DNA of 64,000 bases from a virus, in IMG/VR virus record IMGVR_UViG_3300011115_000874, positions 32,001-96,000 of that record. One strand, written 5' to 3'. This document shows positions 26,457 through 50,096 of this stretch, one piece after another. A model generated the notes under the pieces. The model was not told the origin of the DNA, did no database searches, and saw nothing but the letters and a program-made list of their open reading frames with translations. The stretch's first letter is position 1, and the number at the start of each line of letters is the position of its first letter. A program made the translations under genes and the position numbers.

Positions 26457-26518
26457 GTTATCTGTTTTTATTATTGATCTAAATATAACGTCCTAATTCC
26501 CCTAAGCCAAACCTAAGG

Positions 26519-26701
26519 TTATTTAAATCTGTATTTCTTTACCTTATAATCAGTTACTTCTTCATCCACCTCATCCTCCTCATCAACGTCCTTCTGATGA
26601 CTCATCACTCGGTGAACCGCTGTTTCCTCATCTTCAGCATCCACAAAATAAATTCGTTTAATTGTTTTCAAAACTGTTTCTTCTACCTTAAATGTCTTCA
26701 T
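26519..26701 (-). CDS. Early-array hypothetical protein (start revised to MKTFKV)
   Basis: Own promoter. Confidence 0.6.
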   Translation of the reverse strand: MKTFKVEETVLKTIKRIYFVDAEDEETAVHRVMSHQKDVDEEDEVDEEVTDYKVKKYRFK

Positions 26702-26764
26702 ATGTTTATGTTTTTTAATTATGTCTGAATATAGCATCCCTGTCCCGTTAAGCCAAACAAATGG

Positions 26765-27034
26765 TTAGTTAAGGTAAAACCCAATCTCATGTATTTCATT
26801 CTTAGCGAATGATTTAGCAGAGTCTAGGAAGTGTAGGTGCAAGTGCAAGGCGTTTATGTCGTCCATGATCTCCCTAGTTGGTCTCATATCCAGGTACATC
26901 ATTGAGTTGTGCTCTAGTTCCTGTATCTGTGTTAACGCCTGGCTTATTGACTTATTAGCCATAGCCAATATCTCTAGGACTTGATGTGCCTGTAAGCGTT
27001 CTAATACTTCGTCTGTGTGTTTATTGTAGTCCAT
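26765..27034 (-). CDS. Early-array hypothetical protein (start revised to MDYNKH)
   Basis: The revised start removes the overlap with 27045..27254. Confidence 0.55.
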   Translation of the reverse strand: MDYNKHTDEVLERLQAHQVLEILAMANKSISQALTQIQELEHNSMMYLDMRPTREIMDDINALHLHLHFLDSAKSFAKNEIHEIGFYLN

Positions 27035-27044
27035 GTGTCTATAA

Positions 27045-27254
27045 TTATAGGTTATCAATAAATTCTTGTACTTCTTCAACCAAATTTGCATCATCAATTT
27101 CATATCCATCTTTACTACGTAAAATGAAATCAATACATTTACCATTACTAGAGTCAATAAACTCTTTATACACTAATACTCCTTCCTTTAGATGTTGAAT
27201 AGTGTAAGTGTTTTCAACTACTTGACCCTCAATTTCATGTTTTAATAATTCCAT
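27045..27254 (-). CDS. Early-array hypothetical protein
   Basis: Own promoter. Confidence 0.6.
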   Translation of the reverse strand: MELLKHEIEGQVVENTYTIQHLKEGVLVYKEFIDSSNGKCIDFILRSKDGYEIDDANLVEEVQEFIDNL

Positions 27255-27329
27255 TGTGTTTATGTTTTTTAATTATGGTTAAATATAACATCAATTGTTC
27301 ACAAAGCCAAATAAGGGTGTAAGGGAGTT

Positions 27330-27584
27330 TTAAAATAGAAAATCCTCACCCTCTACAAACCCACTAACATCACCATACTCCCACTCAAATCTCCAAGTCC
27401 CATCTGGTCCTATATGACCAGAAATTAATTTACCATACTTTGAAGTACCATGACTTCGCCAAAATTCTCCTTTAGTAAATTGTCTTTCTCCTTCATGGTC
27501 AAGTAATTTATCTGTAGAACATAATGGTTTATCATACCAATACCACTTAAGTTTGTCAAAATCAATTTTGTTTTTCATATTCAT
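27330..27584 (-). CDS. Early-array hypothetical protein (start revised)
   Basis: Own promoter; Trp/Gly-rich. Confidence 0.6.
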   Translation of the reverse strand: MNMKNKIDFDKLKWYWYDKPLCSTDKLLDHEGERQFTKGEFWRSHGTSKYGKLISGHIGPDGTWRFEWEYGDVSGFVEGEDFLF

Positions 27585-27638
27585 GTTTTTAATTATACCT
27601 GAATATAACATCCATGCTCCGCAGAGCCAAGCAAGGGG

Positions 27639-27869
27639 TTAAACCCCTTTAAAATCAAAATCAATACATCTACCTAACATCATACCATACCCATCATGGC
27701 CTTCTATAAAAATTATATTATTATCATTTAATATCTTTTTACATTTAACCCAATTCACTCTCCCATCAACCCTACAAATTCTAAATCTATCCTTATCATC
27801 CATTCTCATTATAAAAATTCCATCACCACACTTAACAAACATTCCTCTTAACATTTCTAATCTTTCCAT
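27639..27869 (-). CDS. Early-array protein encoded by a nearly cytosine-free gene (76 aa)
   Basis: Only 2 plus-strand G (27698, 27699) in 231 nt; own promoter at 27894-27926. Confidence 0.75.
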   Translation of the reverse strand: MERLEMLRGMFVKCGDGIFIMRMDDKDRFRICRVDGRVNWVKCKKILNDNNIIFIEGHDGYGMMLGRCIDFDFKGV

Positions 27870-28015
27870 AATATTACATTTTTTAATTATGGTTAAATAT
27901 AATAAATATTACCCACAAAGCCAAACAATGGTACATGGGTCTTTAAGGAAGGTACATGGAAACAAGGTGGGACCCCGTTGGATCCCACTTGTAAAAACAC
28001 ACACATGGCTGGGTA

Positions 28016-28225
28016 TTAACCCACTAGCTCGATAGTCTTCATACGACGACGAGACATATTGTACATAGCGTTCGCTACGTCTTGGTTCACCGAACGGTTA
28101 CCATTAATGATGTTTGAAACATGACTGGTAGAATAACCAGTTGCTTCTGCTAGGCGAGCAGTGTCACCTTGTCTTTGACGTGCATTGTAGAACGCCAATT
28201 TTGCTGTACGATTTAATTTACGCAT
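28016..28225 (-). CDS. Cro/C1-type HTH protein
   Basis: TARLAEATGYSTSHVSNIING. Confidence 0.75.
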   Translation of the reverse strand: MRKLNRTAKLAFYNARQRQGDTARLAEATGYSTSHVSNIINGNRSVNQDVANAMYNMSRRRMKTIELVG

Positions 28226-28494
28226 AACTTTAATTAATTATTTATTTATATCTCAATATACGATAGTACTAGTGATAGAGCAAGCTATCCTTAAGAAGGG
28301 GTGAGGCATGAACTGATCAGGTCCATGCCTCGGTTAAGGGAGCTTTGCATCGCTTTCGAATCCCATGAGTAAGTGGTTATTCATCTTCCGGCATACGTTC
28401 CAGTTGATATAGCAGTGCCTACCTGCCTCCCTCATTGTTACCAGATTAAATGTCTCATAATCAACTTAGGCGTCTCATAATCAACTACTGGTAT

Positions 28495-28569
28495 TGGTTG
28501 CGGGAGGGGGATTCGAACCCTCGACCTCAAGGTTATGAGCCTTGCGAGCTACCACTGCTCTATCCCGCG
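28495..28569 (-). tRNA. tRNA-fMet(CAT), CCA encoded
   Basis: CGCGGGA...TCCCGCAACCA with a C1:A72 mismatch; CAAGG-CTCATAA-CCTTG anticodon arm. Confidence 0.9.
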
Positions 28570-28574
28570 ATATG

Positions 28575-28658
28575 TAGCCGGGGCGGGAATCGAACCCGCA
28601 CACCTGTTAGAGTACAAGATTTTAAGTCTTGCGTGTCTACCTATTTCACCACCCGGCC
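28575..28658 (-). tRNA. tRNA-Leu(TAA)
   Basis: GGCCGGG acceptor, GGTAGACAC, CAAGA-CTTAAAA-TCTTG anticodon arm, long variable arm. Confidence 0.92.
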
Positions 28659-28667
28659 ATTTGAGGC

Positions 28668-28841
28668 TTACGCCTCCGGAGTTGCCTCCGTTTGTTCAAC
28701 CTCGACTTGATCAACCTCAGCCTTAGGCTTAGATGGACGTCCACGTTTAACTGTTCCTCCGTTTGCTGCAACTCGTGCTGCGCGGGCCGCTAGACGTGCT
28801 TGACGTGCGCTACCCTCTACTACTGGTCTTCCTTTTTGCAT
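28668..28841 (-). CDS. 57-aa protein with AT-hook-like motifs (not in ORF track)
   Basis: MQKGRPVVEGSARQARLAARAARVAANGGTVKRGRPSKPKAEVDQVEVEQTEATPEA; own promoter. Confidence 0.7.
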   Translation of the reverse strand: MQKGRPVVEGSARQARLAARAARVAANGGTVKRGRPSKPKAEVDQVEVEQTEATPEA

Positions 28842-28905
28842 AACCTTTATTTATTTGTTTTTATTATTTGATTTAATATAATATCCAATCCTAACATAGC
28901 CAAAC

Positions 28906-29175
28906 TTATTCGTGGATAAGATTCACTTCTTTTACCACTTCTGAAACACTAAACTCTCGTTCCTCAGCCACGGCTATAAGTTGTTGAATCTGTCTTGCGT
29001 CGAAGACGTTATCTGGGTCTAGTACGTCGGTTAAGGCCGTTATAAACGTCTTAAATACCGCATCATCCACATTGTGGTAACTGATAACTCCTTTAATAGT
29101 TCCAATCAACTTACCGTAACGGGCGTGTATTGATTGTTCTGCATCTTTTCCTGGCTCAATGATTAAATTTTTCAT
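28906..29175 (-). CDS. Early-array hypothetical protein (start revised to MKNLII)
   Basis: Own promoter. Confidence 0.6.
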   Translation of the reverse strand: MKNLIIEPGKDAEQSIHARYGKLIGTIKGVISYHNVDDAVFKTFITALTDVLDPDNVFDARQIQQLIAVAEEREFSVSEVVKEVNLIHE

Positions 29176-29235
29176 ATATCTGTTTTTAATTATACCTGAA
29201 TATAACATCCCTGTCCCACTAGGCCAAACAAGAGG

Positions 29236-29463
29236 TTACACATTGTAAACCTCTTTTTTATTCACTGACCATATATCTCCATCCTTATCCATACAATGAA
29301 CCGTAGTGGGTCTTACCTTAACTATTTCTCCTACCCAATTTATTTCCCCAAAAAGACCATTTCGGATTAATTCAATTGTGGACCATTTAACTGATTCCCC
29401 TACCTTAAATGAACGTTTTGCTCTTGGTTTTTTAACTGCTGCTGTTTTGATAATCTTTGCCAT
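29236..29463 (-). CDS. Early-array protein, SH3/KOW-like beta fold likely (start revised to MAKIIK)
   Basis: FKVGESVKW...GEIVKV...VHC. Confidence 0.5.
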   Translation of the reverse strand: MAKIIKTAAVKKPRAKRSFKVGESVKWSTIELIRNGLFGEINWVGEIVKVRPTTVHCMDKDGDIWSVNKKEVYNV

Positions 29464-29530
29464 GTGTTTATATTTTTTAATTATGATTAAATATAACATC
29501 ATGTTCCCCAGAAGCCAAACATATCTTGAC

Positions 29531-29673
29531 CCTCCTATCCGGATCTCCCTACCGGATCCACCTACCCGATAATCCTGCGGCCATAACCGGGCATTAGGCG
29601 GCCTTAGGCGGCCCTCAATGCAATACGTTACCCGATACCCCTAGACCGGGTTAGGCCGGGTCCTAGACCGGGT
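29531..29673. repeat. GC-rich intergenic short-repeat patch
   Basis: taggcggcc x2, cctagaccgggt x2, acccgata x2, ccggatc x2. Confidence 0.7.
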
Positions 29674-29741
29674 ATGGATTCTACGCACGAGAAATGGGCA
29701 CGTTTCCGTACCCATCTCCCTATAATTAAAAAACACACACT

Positions 29742-30545
29742 TTATTCCTCTTCGTCCGCCTCTGGCAAACTGTACTCTACTTTACTAAACCCAATTCTAT
29801 ATTTGATATACGATTCAGTATCACAATCTCTGTTTTTACTAAAATATACCTTTCTACTATCACTACCTTTAATTCTATCAATATGACACATTGCTTCGGT
29901 CATGTGTTTCAATCTGTTACTACCTGCAAAATCACCTGCTTTAGTTACTTGTTGAATGTTAATGAACGATGTGTACTTTTTTAATTTGTTACCACCTTTC
30001 TTAACAATACATTGTAAATTCAAAAACCATAACTCAGCAGCGCTTTCAGTTGTACGGTAAGTATCTTTATACATTTCAATTACCTCAGCAATACTATCAA
30101 TCGCAATCACATCATAACCTTGGTCGAACACATACTCCATTGTTTCCTTAACTGTCTCAGTGTAATTCTTCAAAAATAATGTCGGTACAACCTTAAAACC
30201 AGGCATACGTTTGCAATATTTGAAGTGACCAATTTCATCCATCTCACCGCTCACAAACAATACCTTTTTACCTCTCGCCGCTAACTTAGATAACATATCT
30301 AATACCACCGTACTCTTACCTGAACCTGGTCCGCCACATATAATCATGTTAACCGCAGGCATTAAACCTTTATCCGTTGATAAAATCGAATCCATCAACG
30401 TTCCAGTTGACATTGGGCGAAATACAGATTCGTTAAACGATAACTCAGAACCTTTAAATATTTGAACTGATTTTGGGTCGAACGCTACTGTCTCTTTAAC
30501 TTTTGGCTTGCGACCTCTTTTCTTTTGCATTACTAAATTTTTCAT
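29742..30545 (-). CDS. RadA/Sms-like RecA-fold ATPase (ATPase domain only)
   Basis: GGPGSGKST Walker A, FVSGEM, IAIDSI Walker B, QVTKAGDFAG..LKH, KNR. Confidence 0.8.
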   Translation of the reverse strand: MKNLVMQKKRGRKPKVKETVAFDPKSVQIFKGSELSFNESVFRPMSTGTLMDSILSTDKGLMPAVNMIICGGPGSGKSTVVLDMLSKLAARGKKVLFVSGEMDEIGHFKYCKRMPGFKVVPTLFLKNYTETVKETMEYVFDQGYDVIAIDSIAEVIEMYKDTYRTTESAAELWFLNLQCIVKKGGNKLKKYTSFINIQQVTKAGDFAGSNRLKHMTEAMCHIDRIKGSDSRKVYFSKNRDCDTESYIKYRIGFSKVEYSLPEADEEE

Positions 30546-30610
30546 GTGTGTGTTTTTTATTATGAATTAAATATAACATCCCTTGTCCCGAAGGCCAAAC
30601 AAGTTGTGTA

Positions 30611-30823
30611 TTATTTTTTATTAAGAGAAGTTTTATAATTGTAAACAAAATCTCTCAATGTTTCACCTCGACAGATATCATACCCATTTTTTGCAGTGGT
30701 ATTATTTCTAGTAGCATATTCCTCTAACGCAGCATATGTTTCTGGGTATAATATTGTCTTCCACTCACTCAACTGTGTTTGTTGGATTCGAATACCTTCT
30801 CCTACGGTTAACTTCTTTGCCAT
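30611..30823 (-). CDS. Early-array hypothetical protein
   Basis: Own promoter. Confidence 0.6.
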   Translation of the reverse strand: MAKKLTVGEGIRIQQTQLSEWKTILYPETYAALEEYATRNNTTAKNGYDICRGETLRDFVYNYKTSLNKK

Positions 30824-30923
30824 TGTATTATGTGTTTTTAATTATATCTGAATATAACATCACCTAACCCAAAGGCCAAACAGAGGGCACCATTTTGTGC
30901 CCTCCTCTACCTTAAAGGTAATT

Positions 30924-31268
30924 TTACTTACCTAAACCCTCTAATACAGTCTCAACTACACTCTCAACATTCTCATCATCTAATACCCAATCAATACTAT
31001 CTACAACCTCATTTAATACTCTACCTCTACTAACTTTAACTTCAATTCCACCAATTACATCACTCTTTTTAGAGTATAAGGCATTTGTAAAATCAAAATT
31101 ATCCTTTTTACTTAACTCAAACTTCACACCATTTGCAACGGCATTACTAATTGTTTTAGTAAATTCAATTAACTCCTCTTTTGTGAAAGTAACAGTTTCG
31201 TTGTTAATTTCGTTTTCTAATTTAGCAACTTGTGCTTTTAATCCTAACAATTCTGCAATTTTGCTCAT
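30924..31268 (-). CDS. Early-array protein, paralog of 25938..26456; 3' part C-depleted
   Basis: Own promoter; plus-strand 30950-31071 has no G. Confidence 0.65.
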   Translation of the reverse strand: MSKIAELLGLKAQVAKLENEINNETVTFTKEELIEFTKTISNAVANGVKFELSKKDNFDFTNALYSKKSDVIGGIEVKVSRGRVLNEVVDSIDWVLDDENVESVVETVLEGLGK

Positions 31269-31338
31269 TTTGTTTTTGTTTTTAATTATTATTTTTTTAT
31301 TTGATTAAATATAACATCCATTTCCCACAAAGCCAAAC

Positions 31339-31563
31339 CTAACTTACCCTCTCTAAAAACTCTTCTTTACTAATCTTATTCTTAATAGCCCAAGATGCGG
31401 CATCACAAAAATAACCTTTAAAGAATATAAGATGATTGTATTTAGGTCTATTTATTATTTTAGGGTTAATTTTATAACCTTTTTCTCCAGCTATTTTAGC
31501 TAATAATTTTAACTCAGCTCTATCTTTACAGATAACTCCTTCATAATCTTTAAATTCTTTCAT
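31339..31563 (-). CDS. Early-array hypothetical protein
   Basis: Own promoter. Confidence 0.6.
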   Translation of the reverse strand: MKEFKDYEGVICKDRAELKLLAKIAGEKGYKINPKIINRPKYNHLIFFKGYFCDAASWAIKNKISKEEFLERVS

Positions 31564-31619
31564 GTTTGTGTTTTTTAATTATGACTGAATATAACATCTC
31601 TATTCTACAAAGCCAAACA

Positions 31620-31853
31620 TTACACAATAGTTCTTTTAACTGCTTTATACTCCACTAACTCATAACTTAACCAGTTTAATGGAATTTTTACTTTACCAAA
31701 ATTAATGGCCCCCATATTGGTGTTTGGGTCAAATTCCTCCATTATTTTAGATTTATTACCTACAATTTCTCCTACCTTAAACTCCATATCAAAGTGTTTA
31801 GTTATTTCTTTAACACCTTTTTTACTTAAACCTCTGTTGAAAATCTTTACCAT
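31620..31853 (-). CDS. Early-array hypothetical protein
   Basis: Own promoter. Confidence 0.6.
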   Translation of the reverse strand: MVKIFNRGLSKKGVKEITKHFDMEFKVGEIVGNKSKIMEEFDPNTNMGAINFGKVKIPLNWLSYELVEYKAVKRTIV

Positions 31854-31925
31854 TTTTATGTGTTTTTAATTATGACTGAATATAACATCAATGTTCGGCG
31901 AAGCCAAACAAAGTGGTGAGGGAGT

Positions 31926-32168
31926 TTAAATACTCACCTCACACACCACATAATCTAACTCCTCACCTTCCTCATCTTCACATGGGAACCCACTATCCTC
32001 ATTTTCCCAATCATAACTCTCATCATAAACTGGTCCAACATCAAATCCTGGAAAATCAAAATGATAAGTAAAATCAGTATGATCTGAAACTGATAATACT
32101 AATTGGGTCTCACCAAAACCCTCATTTTTTAACTCTGTTAATTGGTCGATTAATTCTTGTACTGTCAT
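31926..32168 (-). CDS. Very acidic early protein (MTVQELIDQL N terminus)
   Basis: Own promoter; D/E-rich. Confidence 0.65.
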   Translation of the reverse strand: MTVQELIDQLTELKNEGFGETQLVLSVSDHTDFTYHFDFPGFDVGPVYDESYDWENEDSGFPCEDEEGEELDYVVCEVSI

Positions 32169-32237
32169 GTGTTATTAATTTTTAATTATACTTAAATATA
32201 ACATCCCTGTTCCACAAAGCCAAACAAGAGGTGATGA

Positions 32238-32420
32238 TTATTCATCATCATCTTCAAAATCAATTTTTTCAAATCTCTCAATCTCATTTAGATCATCAAC
32301 ATATCTATCTAATTTTTGGGATAGATCTTCTAGATCAAAATTATGAGCTTTATCTATGTTTTTATTTGCTAGTTCAATAGCTTGTTTTAAGATTTTAACT
32401 AATTCTTTTTTTGCATTCAT
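32238..32420 (-). CDS. Early-array hypothetical protein
   Basis: Own promoter. Confidence 0.6.
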   Translation of the reverse strand: MNAKKELVKILKQAIELANKNIDKAHNFDLEDLSQKLDRYVDDLNEIERFEKIDFEDDDE

Positions 32421-32507
32421 AATATATATTTTTTAATTATACCTAAATATAACATCAATTGTTCGCGAGGCCAAACAAAGGGTGAAGGGGGGTTAAACCC
32501 CTCTTAC

Positions 32508-32861
32508 CTAAATCTTCTCACACATAGTCTCATCTGCCAAAAACTCTATAAATAAACTCTCACCTTCAAAATAACTACTAATACTTTTTCTAATACTAAC
32601 ATTATACCAAATATCCTTCCCCCAAATATCACTTAACTCTTTATCTTCTAAACAAACACCTTCACCTACAAACTCTTTAATTTCATTAATACTACAATCA
32701 TCATTATAATCTTCAAAATCATCATCCAACCAAAACTCATAACTCACTCTATCACCAATTTTATACTCATTATAATCACTCTCCATATTACCTAAAATCA
32801 ACCCATTAATAACATTTCCAATTCCAACATTTACATCAACCACATTTTTAAACTTTTCCAT
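32508..32861 (-). CDS. Acidic early protein encoded by a nearly cytosine-free gene (117 aa; start revised to MEKFKN)
   Basis: Only 2 plus-strand G (32527, 32536) in 354 nt; own promoter at 32886-32918. Confidence 0.8.
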   Translation of the reverse strand: MEKFKNVVDVNVGIGNVINGLILGNMESDYNEYKIGDRVSYEFWLDDDFEDYNDDCSINEIKEFVGEGVCLEDKELSDIWGKDIWYNVSIRKSISSYFEGESLFIEFLADETMCEKI

Positions 32862-33075
32862 ATTTTTATATTTTTTAATTATACCTAAATATAATAAAAA
32901 TGGTACACAAAGCCAAACAAAGGGTGACAAAGGTTTCTCCCCTATATATTTATAATAGAATTTCAATTGCGAAGACGACACATTGCCCTGGTGGCGAAAA
33001 TCACTGAAGCTAGTAGTTATTGATGCTCAACCAGACTAGAAAAAAGAGCAGGCGCCACGGCGCCCACCACTGTCT

Positions 33076-33537
33076 TTAGCTAACCGCCAAGTATCTCTCA
33101 GCCTGGCTCCAATTCTGGAACCATGGGTTACTAGCGTAGTTGTTTGGGCTCACATTCAGGTCTATCTGGCCTGGGAAGTGATAGTCAATATGCCGTAACA
33201 CCTTTTGCACTAGCGACGGCTTAACATACACCCAAAACTGACCTCCCTCGCTGTCATACTGGATCCCTTCGCCTGCCTTGAACTGGGTCTGGAGTGAGAG
33301 CTCAATGTCGTAGTGGGACAGCTCTCCTTTAGCGCACCCGCTTATGCAAATTGTCAATTTCTGGCTGTGGGGAATGGTTCTTTGAATCTCCTCTTCCTTT
33401 TCATTTTTATACATCTCGTAGGTGCTCTTTTCAAAGTCAGTTGGCTCCCTGTCCTTGTAGGTGACTTCCCATGCTCTTTTTACATCCACCATTAGCTTAG
33501 CTACTCTCAGCTTGATCTCCCTTAAATGATCTTCCAT
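33076..33537 (-). CDS. Early-array hypothetical protein, GC-richer than its neighbours
   Basis: 153 aa; own promoter at about 33555-33588. Confidence 0.6.
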   Translation of the reverse strand: MEDHLREIKLRVAKLMVDVKRAWEVTYKDREPTDFEKSTYEMYKNEKEEEIQRTIPHSQKLTICISGCAKGELSHYDIELSLQTQFKAGEGIQYDSEGGQFWVYVKPSLVQKVLRHIDYHFPGQIDLNVSPNNYASNPWFQNWSQAERYLAVS

Positions 33538-33589
33538 GTGCTTTATTTATTTAACTAAATATAACATCCCTTTCCCCCTAAGCCAAACC

Positions 33590-34100
33590 TTCTTGTTCCC
33601 CCTTTGGTTTCCCCTACCGGATCCTCCTACCAGTTACCCCTACTTGCTCCCCCTACGCGGCCACTGCCATTGCCCCGATGGGGTAGGCGTTTATTTCCAC
33701 AGTATCCCCATTTATTTGCCCCGGGGTGGGGGATATTTTGTATATATTTTTTCGATAAAAAGTTTGGCTTGTTGTGGCGGGCTGGGTTACCGTCCCCTTG
33801 CCCTCATATAACCCGTTTCCCCTACGTTTGTCACATACCACCCTTATATATACTTATATTTGGATATGTGAGTCACACTTGTTCTTCCGTTTGTCACACT
33901 TGGTCCTCCTACCCTATCACCCTACTTGATACCCCTACTTGTTTCCCCTCTTGATCACCCTACCTTTTTTCCCTTACTCGTTTCCCCTACCCTATCACAC
34001 TCCTGTCTCAAACGAATATTCCTCATCCGTCGTTTTGTTTTCCCTACCTGATTCCCCTACCTGATCTTCCTTATCTGATATTCCTACTTGATCTCCCTTA
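33590..34100. repeat. Cluster of (C)CCCTAC/CCTAC short repeats
   Basis: At least ten same-strand copies in the intergenic gap, continuing into the 3' end of 33995..34300. Confidence 0.7.
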
Positions 34101-49365: not shown

Positions 49366-49699
49366 GGTCTACATCTGGCTCAGTAGCGTCTTCTTCTAGA
49401 TCGAAGTCGTTCAATGTTTTAGTATCATCATCTGCGTCTGTTGAAACAACCTCAAGTGAGGTATTCTCATCTTCAATTAATTGTTTTCTAAAGTTCTTTT
49501 CAGCTTCTTCAATCTTACGAAGATCCTCTCTATCAACAGCATATGTTTCGATCCATGTGTGATCACCCTCTCCCATTAATACTGTTACTGCTGCTTTTTT
49601 CTCAACTGTGGAATGTTGAGTGCAAGTTTGCGTATTAGGCAAAATGGCAATACGTCTTGGATCTATTTCACTCCCACATACAATACATTTTCTACTCAT
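49358..49699 (-). CDS. DksA/TraR-type zinc-finger protein with acidic tail
   Basis: CIVCGSEIDPRRIAILPNTQTCTQH. Confidence 0.7.
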   Translation of the reverse strand: MSRKCIVCGSEIDPRRIAILPNTQTCTQHSTVEKKAAVTVLMGEGDHTWIETYAVDREDLRKIEEAEKNFRKQLIEDENTSLEVVSTDADDDTKTLNDFDLEEDATEPDVDHA

Positions 49700-50096
49700 C
49701 TTTTTTACCTTTATTTTCTATTTTATCTATTTTCTCAATTAATTTCCATAATTCTTCAGGTGTCTTCAACTTATATTTTTTAGTTGGTTTACCTTCAGCA
49801 GTGATTTCTAAATCTAATATCTTTCCCTCACCATCAATTCTATCATACACATACCATAGAATCAATTCTGCCTTCCATTCCTCAAAATGTAAGTAAATTA
49901 AATCCTCAATTATATGGTAAAAATGCTCTTCATAATTCCAAAAATCAACTTGTAGTTGGGAGTGTAAGAAACTAGTTCTAATCCAACAATTGTCTAGTTG
50001 AGACACAAGTCTAACAAATAATTGTTTTTCTTTATTCTCAGATGTCCTTCCACTATCAGAAACTCTAAGTTTACTTCCGAAATTATTTAGATTCAT
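49692..50096 (-). CDS. Hypothetical protein
   Basis: 134 aa; promoter copy at about 50111-50141. Confidence 0.55.
   Translation of the reverse strand: MNLNNFGSKLRVSDSGRTSENKEKQLFVRLVSQLDNCWIRTSFLHSQLQVDFWNYEEHFYHIIEDLIYLHFEEWKAELILWYVYDRIDGEGKILDLEITAEGKPTKKYKLKTPEELWKLIEKIDKIENKGKKDE

Follow-up and report, generated by a model that had tools for sequence, protein, structure and literature searches.

Small, non-essential early genes carried as cassettes are known from the hyperplastic region of the T4-type phages RB49 and phi1, where they are called PeSL cassettes (Arbiol et al. 2010, PMC2839356). Each combines a strong host-type promoter with a stem-loop that abuts the next promoter, and the cassettes are gained, lost and swapped between relatives (PMC2839356). 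The gene analyzed here lies on the minus strand of a 64,000-nt window (the whole stretch of viral DNA that was analyzed; coordinates are those of the window unless genome positions are named). The architecture of its cassette is of the known PeSL type. A sigma70-like early promoter, TTGGCT-17-TATATT, is predicted from the sequence just upstream of a small ORF (27924-27896), the 3' stem-loop GGGGTTTAACCCC abuts the next promoter, and the cassette lies in a hyperplastic region in which cassettes are gained, lost or replaced between relatives. PeSL cassettes are without a compositional rule, whereas in the units described here, which we call C-less, one base is absent from the sense strand and the promoter and hairpin subtype is tied to that rule.

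Transcription units that lack one base are also known as synthetic G-less and C-less cassettes used for in vitro transcription (e.g. PMC2995049, PMC9908020). In both these and the C-less genes, three NTPs are enough for the polymerase up to a defined first C or G, but the synthetic cassettes are engineered and non-coding, whereas the C-less genes are natural, protein-coding and deeply conserved in about 27 families. A sense-strand skew of G over C is shared with the purine bias by which genes avoid Rho (Dierksheide et al. 2026, PMC13323073). That bias is driven by something that reads nascent RNA and is quantitative, genome-wide and purine-favouring (PMC13323073), whereas the C-less genes are a discrete zero-C class with no extra purines and with high U. 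Neither a raised purine content nor a low T was found on their sense strand. In MazF-resistant mRNAs, which are ACA-less, the target has been purged from the coding sequence and the message is immune to a sequence-specific hazard. The C-less genes resemble them in that a message would become immune by purging the hazard's target. However, ACA-less genes keep their other C, whereas the C-less genes purge every C, even where it would be synonymous at a third position or where the sequence is non-coding. The depletion goes beyond a toxin's triplet to C in general: 52 ORFs totalling 12,894 nt contain 110 C.

The remaining comparison is with phages in which G is completely replaced by 7-deazaguanines through a DpdA3-type pathway, such as immuto_2-6A, phiST and CP220 (Cui et al. 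2023, PMC10516641). That study does not mention G-less template strands. The phage analyzed here resembles them in carrying QueC, of the preQ0 pathway, together with a DpdA3 homolog, and immuto_2-6A also has a near-C-less gene. However, the C-less cassette itself is not part of the DpdA3 modification pathway, and the DpdA3 phages G004 (an uncultured relative) and CP220 have no C-less genes. Full-text literature searches for natural cytosine-free phage genes retrieved only engineered C-less and G-less cassettes, and as far as these searches found, a three-letter rule for natural genes is not in print.

The C-less gene and its cassette

The ORF at 27639..27869 (minus strand, 231 nt, 76 aa; family A) contains T83 A82 G64 C2 on its coding strand. 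Its only two C stand side by side at 27698..27699, as the third base of a Gly codon GGC and the first base of a conserved His codon CAT within a GHDGYG motif. The plus strand is free of G from 27700 to 27890, a run of 191 nt where chance alone would be expected to give a longest run of about 62 nt, and the encoded protein has zero A, P, T, Q and S and a single H. These counts agree with the sequence-only reading, which had pointed out the two adjacent C, the G-free plus strand and the five missing amino acids. It had also judged the 76-aa protein to be unlike the protein encoded at 32508, and BLASTP between the two gave E = 0.99.

Chance is excluded as the source of the C-lessness. The probability of drawing two or fewer C in 76 codons from the genome's own codon usage is 3.8e-13. 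Based on synonymous choice alone, with the protein fixed, 10.9 C-containing codons are expected among the 58 that have a choice and one is seen (P ~10^-5.5). The ORFs of the genome have a median C content of 13.5%, with the first percentile at 6.8%. Across the whole 160,798-bp genome, four or fewer G per 200 nt occur only at the C-less ORF 27639-27869 and at 32491-32922; the top four G-free runs are 365, 191, 122 and 98 nt long and the fifth is 79 nt.

Relative to normal composition, C is replaced in this ORF more by G (+10 points) than by T (+5.5), with T at 36%. Sense-strand G amounts to 26-28% in the C-less genes and G-ending synonymous codons are enriched; G is not avoided on the sense strand. 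The two C-less genes of the genome have 62-63% A+G, compared with 54-63% in their neighbours, and 36-38% U, the highest among 15 early genes, and their G-over-C skew is the most extreme possible. Their MFE is the weakest among the 15 early genes (-10.4 and -12.2 kcal per 100 nt). An unstructured mRNA was considered as the cause and dropped because these values are not distinct from that of the early gene g60 (-11.3 kcal per 100 nt).

The early promoter of the cassette (27896..27924, minus strand) consists of a -35 element TTGGCT (27924-27919), a 17-nt spacer and a -10 element TATATT (27901-27896). It has no TG ahead of the -10, and the region from about -22 to -6 is purely A/T. Early promoters of the genome fit GTTTGGCT-N17-TATATT at 33 sites. 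Most of those in the early array read GATG-TTATATT, with TG before the -10, compared with TTTAT-TATATT at both C-less genes. The promoters of family A and of the second C-less gene (family B) both have the form GTTTGGCTTTGTG...TTTATTATATT, without the TG found in the usual GATGTTATATT. The common promoter subtype claimed for the two genes is therefore seen at both, but it is not exclusive to them, as TTTATTATATT also occurs at genome positions 9910, 26070 and 42621. About 25 other early genes have the same -35 and -10 elements as the C-less cassettes, contain 7-19% C and are presumably expressed.

A C-free 5' leader follows at 27870..27890, the C-free run beginning at 27890, right after the CC at 27892-27891. 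A transcription start would be expected 6-8 nt past the -10, and the start predicted in this way falls where the C-free run begins. Neighbouring genes have the C-containing leader AAAAACAYAAACA, in place of which family A has AATTAAAAAATGTAATATT. Early leaders of this phage are A-rich, with no evident Shine-Dalgarno motif. The Bacteroidota promoter consensus is TTTG / TAnnTTTG, and the early promoters plus the A-rich leaders look like Bacteroidota-type expression signals.

At its 3' end the gene runs into the stem-loop GGGGTTTAACCCC (27635..27647, minus strand; 7 bp, no U tract), whose 5' arm encodes Gly-Val and whose loop region contains the stop codon TAA (27641-27639). After the GGC-CAT pair, the next C of the transcript lies in the 3' arm of this hairpin, past the stop codon. 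The genome contains just two copies of the 13-mer (27635-27647 and 32489-32501), both at the end of a C-less ORF, which upholds the earlier observation that both genes end at the same hairpin; the two copies fold at -9.8 and -12.9 kcal/mol, respectively. The promoter of the next gene, which is of normal composition, abuts the hairpin (27602..27630, minus strand, TTGGCT-17-TATATT with TG), its -35 beginning 4 nt after the stem-loop. The sister cassette of family B (32489..32916, minus strand; ORF 32508-32861, 117 aa, 2 C) shares the promoter subtype (32888-32916) and the hairpin, and its leader is likewise C-free.

Upstream, the preceding cassette is closed by a terminator-like hairpin (27967..27988, minus strand) that belongs to a gene for a 69-aa Cro/C1-type HTH protein (28016..28225, minus strand; PF01381, 25 bits). 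This gene, directly upstream of family A, has a normal composition (18.7% C) and precedes family A in most of the close relatives examined (L001-L005, L007). By way of speculation, the HTH protein might regulate the GATG-containing early promoters, and the TG-less cassette promoters might escape it. Phage genes for tRNA-Met(CAT) and tRNA-Leu(TAA) lie between early cassettes at 28495-28658 (minus strand), about 630 nt upstream of the C-less gene. UUA accounts for 82% of TTR Leu codons, and Met makes up 5.4% of residues in C-less genes, compared with 3.3%; both preferences possibly reflect just AT-rich codon usage.

Family A and the C-less class in related phages

We conclude that the 76-aa ORF is a real gene, based on about 40 metagenomic orthologs, dN/dS values of 0.18-0.69 (with dS up to about 0.8) and an AlphaFold model (26 sequences) with a pLDDT of 88.7 and an alpha-beta-beta-alpha-beta-beta topology. 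Its homologs are solely metagenomic. One search gave 16 clusters, 63-98% identical to the protein, and another gave 8 representatives of clusters formed at the 50% level; there are further 4 IMG/VR loci and 27 metagenome loci down to 41% identity. The protein has no match in Pfam or PHROGs. A tblastn search of 50,697 phage records gave no match, whether the query was this protein, a distant family member or a C-less protein of 172 aa, and Foldseek found no match for the model in PDB or BFVD at E <= 0.001. The best hit of a wide VIA-align search with the model (Z 6.3) is a generic ferredoxin-like sandwich, and the ESM Atlas returned unnamed clusters only, at 0.81.

Every family A ortholog, down to 41% identity, is C-poor (0-7 C). 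When 23 distinct orthologs were aligned by codon, 167 of the 234 columns varied; C occurs as a state in 11 of these, compared with 154 for A, 133 for G and 104 for T. The corresponding counts for C in the variable columns of neighbouring genes at the same loci are 63 of 102, 131 of 313 and 91 of 177, and in family B 7 of 159. Synonymous change in family A is frequent but takes place among A-, G- and T-ending codons, C-ending codons being almost absent. Judged from these alignments, purifying selection keeps family A C-free.

Where C does occur in the C-less genes, its position is informative. Among the 110 C of the 52 distinct low-C ORFs, 81 are at codon positions 1-2 (His, Thr, Pro, Ala, Gln) and 29 are at third positions; 15 of the latter are the GGC ahead of the His CAT in family A and 14 are elsewhere. 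Family A orthologs without the His have 0 C. C is tolerated only where the amino acid is needed, and the conserved GGC is the exception. Of 18 family A orthologs with CAT, 14 have GGC immediately before it and one has GCC, and GGC is never found without CAT after it. The other Gly codons of family A drift freely among GGT, GGA and GGG, while the GGC before CAT is conserved across orthologs with dS up to about 0.8. A C beside an unavoidable C thus seems to be cost-free or even favoured. The GGC-CAT pair also creates a GGCC palindrome, at 27698-27703 (minus strand) and in the orthologs. C-less proteins in general use a 15-letter amino acid alphabet, even at variable positions.

A scan of all fetched loci identified 68 distinct proteins encoded at <=2.5% C, which fall into about 27 BLAST families. 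These are small proteins, for the most part acidic, and include one membrane protein with two helices. ORFs form discrete classes, with either 2.5% C or less or 5.6% C or more. In close relatives, four unrelated C-less families have a hairpin of the GGGG-TTTAA-CCCC type, and three of these also have the TG-less promoter and a C-free leader. In a set of 259 distinct promoters, TG-less ones make up 20 of the 23 upstream of C-less DNA and 70 of the remaining 236 (OR 15.8, p 9e-8, kinship ignored). The idea that these genes form a dedicated class of C-less early cassettes and not a one-off thus holds beyond this genome, and the association of low-C ORFs with the promoter subtype and the hairpin, proposed there as a check, is mostly seen in the close relatives.

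In relatives that are more distant, the rule extends over several genes that form blocks. One locus (L038) has zero C over 1.27 kb, a stretch that includes five genes with their spacers and internal promoters and in which the C-free run starts about 25 nt upstream of the predicted transcription start. Others have 10 C in 1.48 kb (L030), 40 C in a C-poor stretch of about 2.7 kb (L033) and 5 C in 1,993 nt (L099). C-poor blocks of the sense strand, as long as 1,993 nt, were found in 10 of 80 related IMG/VR loci; no locus had a G-less block there. The C-poor blocks always follow the direction of transcription. Based on the C-free spacers and promoters and the sense-strand blocks, we conclude that the rule acts at the level of nucleotides and transcription direction, and not at that of codons or tRNAs. 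Relatives differ in which C-less and normal cassettes sit between conserved genes, and the family A cassette is a member of an accessory, swappable pool of small early genes.

These are natural protein-coding genes written in three of the four bases, hence in 15 amino acids, and held so by selection across dozens of families. Such a rule implies a strong base-specific hazard early in infection, which could strike either the C of the RNA or the (modified) G of the template, and we found no published description of a hazard of this kind. The rule also flags, by composition alone, small early proteins that are likely to matter for host takeover or counter-defence.

G-replacement genes in carriers and non-carriers

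The phage is an uncultured, Flavobacterium-type phage whose nearest cultured relative is immuto_2-6A (160,410 bp; QueC 64% and baseplate wedge 47% identical). Its genome encodes QueC at genome positions 110966-111580 (E 1e-40) and a DpdA3 homolog at 111890-112660 (36% identity to the DpdA3 of immuto_2-6A, E 4e-51). The latter is missed by PF01702 (TGT) and was found only with the immuto protein as query. No match to the ThyA/dCMP-hydroxymethylase or dCMP-deaminase families was found in the genome, and cytosine modification was rejected on this basis. In virion DNA of immuto_2-6A every G is replaced, with 100% fdPreQ1 (PMC10516641).

The complete genome analyzed here (G000) has QueC, DpdA3 and two C-less genes. 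In complete immuto_2-6A, QueC and DpdA3 are accompanied by a single near-C-less early gene; this gene, gp143, has a C-free leader and, by direct count, 5 C in 357 nt. A third genome (G005, 155 kb, 93% complete) has QueC, DpdA3 and two C-less genes. Thus, all three carriers with a complete or nearly complete genome have QueC and DpdA3, and all belong to the same clade. The sequence at NC_055915.1 68330-68686 (L042 18330-18686) is unrelated to families A and B and provides an experimental handle. QueC and DpdA3 without a C-less gene are found in G004 (169 kb, 100% complete; lowest ORF at 8.1% C), in G007 (77% complete) and in the Campylobacter phage CP220 (100% dADG). A further relative (G006, 124 kb, 74% complete) has no C-less gene, and neither QueC nor DpdA3 was found in it. 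Mel-JY01 (190 kb) and LR756508.1 (484 kb) have no QueC match, no DpdA3 match and no C-less gene; they are the only other baseplate wedge matches, at 47% and 37% identity, so that Mel-JY01 is by this protein as close to the present genome as immuto_2-6A.

It should be noted that the co-occurrence of QueC and DpdA3 with C-less genes is not phylogenetically independent, as the carriers are all from one clade. Furthermore, the lack of C-less genes in G004 and CP220 indicates that complete G replacement does not require the cassettes. No complete genome with C-less cassettes but without DpdA3 was found, most carrier contigs being too short to reach the QueC region.

What the three-letter rule may guard against

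A sense strand without C means that the transcribed strand is without G over the whole C-less transcription unit. The reading that we favour, with a probability of roughly one in three (0.36), is that C-less cassettes represent a proofing of the template, being transcription units designed to escape trouble where the template has a modified G. The phage has QueC and a DpdA3 homolog, the gene set that in immuto_2-6A swaps every G of virion DNA for the bulky fdPreQ1. A G-less template strand would then be the only stretch that host RNA polymerase could copy without meeting a modified base or damage at one. At a modified template G, the polymerase might read slowly or be blocked, or the host might attack the base. 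With such a design, a few accessory early proteins would be sure to be expressed promptly, probably to counter host defences or to take over the host.

Several observations are consistent with this proofing of the template. The rule is a strand rule, as seen in the 1.27 kb without C that include spacers and internal promoters, and the 10 loci with C-poor blocks on the sense strand have no G-less counterpart. The C-free run of family A begins at the predicted start, its next C beyond GGC-CAT lies in the 3' arm of the hairpin, and C is a state in just 11 of the 167 variable columns. The high sense-strand G (26-28%) and the enrichment of G-ending codons fit a rule on the template strand alone. 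The reading also joins two rare things at the same base pair, G-less template strands and complete G replacement, and the three carriers with QueC and DpdA3 stand beside Mel-JY01 and LR756508.1, which lack both and have no C-less genes. Experiments with the RNA polymerases of E. coli and B. subtilis lend it some support, as templates in which 7-deazaG bears a mid-sized or bulky group (vinyl, ethynyl or phenyl) at position 7 nearly abolish transcription in vitro (PMC4838386). However, that study saw no truncated transcripts and placed the block at initiation, in the recognition of the -35, and not at elongation (PMC4838386); the -35 elements of C-less cassettes still contain G. Also against proofing of the template are the absence of C-less ORFs from G004 and of a C-less gene from CP220, the restriction of the carriers to one clade, and the roughly 25 early genes that have the same -35 and -10 and 7-19% C and are presumably expressed. 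If every G of the template added to the cost, one would not expect a synonymous GGC to be conserved before CAT.

In a related reading, which we consider rather unlikely, the cassettes are attack-proof templates. Hosts would strike the phage 7-deazaguanines, e.g. with a glycosylase or a type IV-like system, leaving lesions that block RNA polymerase on the transcribed strand, and only G-less templates would remain readable. The C-less genes might then encode inhibitors of that defence. If true, attack-proof templates would be a new class of anti-defence genes recognisable from composition alone.

The hazard may instead lie on the RNA side, acting at every C of the nascent or finished transcript; we consider this tentative alternative nearly as likely as the proofing of the template. 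Candidates are a C-dependent endoribonuclease (a toxin or abortive-infection RNase), the viperin-made chain terminator ddhCTP and a shortage of CTP (CTP stress or defence-positive hosts being the cause that the sequence-only reading had put forward), and the C-less messages would be those that still yield protein, e.g. for Dmd-like antidotes. The C-free zone matches the predicted transcript from start to hairpin, leaders and spacers included, and the C classes are discrete. Moreover, the presence of the genes is accessory and patchy even among DpdA3 phages, as would be expected of counter-measures to variable host defences, and the proteins are small and mostly acidic. The tolerance of GGC solely next to CAT also suggests a cost that depends on context and not on count alone. 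However, to our knowledge no C-specific RNase, viperin or CTP-depleting function is known or has been shown for these hosts, and no gene for such an agent was identified in our analysis. ddhCTP is reported to act on phage-encoded polymerases, whereas the promoters of the C-less cassettes are of host type. An RNA-side hazard would also leave the presence of the G-replacement gene set in every carrier seen to ancestry.

The other alternatives fare worse. A C-less message has no YC dinucleotides for Rho loading and would escape Rho-dependent termination or the silencing of foreign DNA. The cassettes have the most extreme possible G-over-C skew, and what marks a Rho target is T-richness combined with more C than G (PMC13323073). 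We nevertheless find Rho avoidance improbable, because the purine content of the C-less genes (62-63%) is no higher than that of their neighbours (54-63%), their U (36-38%) is the highest of all and scored as pro-Rho by the same study, and an adjacent early gene with 18.7% C and 20% G is tolerated. Rho also needs a C-rich stretch of roughly 80-150 nt, so that purging the last few C would bring little benefit, yet the class is discrete. Loss of C from the non-template strand, displaced and deaminated during heavy transcription (spontaneously or by an ssDNA deaminase) and then either eroded by mutation pressure or selected against because U in DNA is cut, would explain why the pattern is strand-specific, tracks transcription direction and comes with T raised to 36%. 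It is very improbable, however, given that C is replaced more by G than by T, that the ORFs are intact and their proteins keep the 15-letter alphabet even at variable positions, that orthologs diverged to a dS of up to about 0.8 have kept a synonymous GGC, and that neighbours with similar -35/-10 elements are unaffected. At the level of translation, avoidance of a set of tRNAs or codons (e.g. if host tRNAs were cleaved or Q-modification changed) would fit the five missing amino acids, the restriction to NNU, NNA and NNG codons and the phage tRNA-Leu(UAA) and tRNA-Met genes 630 nt upstream of the cassette. This explanation is all but refuted, since leaders, spacers and internal promoters, which are not translated, lack C as well. 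Moreover, C is banned from all three codon positions, which no one set of tRNAs would account for.

Some further observations concern neighbouring sequence and other genomes. In the early array (26500-33600, minus strand), many ORF calls start with MLYSGIIKN or MLYLIIIKK, which are the promoter and leader read in frame; these N-termini are not real, and the true start is the ATG after AATTAAAAA. Two shorter C-free stretches, one of 122 nt within gene 30924-31268 and one of 98 nt at 49661-49758, are not C-less genes. The former (30950-31071, minus strand) covers the C-terminal 40 codons of a 114-aa early gene, which are C-free also in close relatives, but neither in the 54%-identical L001 ortholog nor in a distant homolog; this may be a case that is partial or in decay, or may follow from the amino-acid composition. 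CP220 has a single 111-nt G-free run on the plus strand (NC_027997.1 83687-83797), where the expected longest run is about 63 nt. In Mel-JY01, a weak C-poor spot (123472-123674) was rejected as a C-less gene because it is non-coding and G-rich. It lies within a stretch (PP395634.1 123472-124470) that is non-coding, first G-rich and C-poor and then with G-free runs of 87-88 nt, that has no ORF and that may be a repeat or regulatory region.
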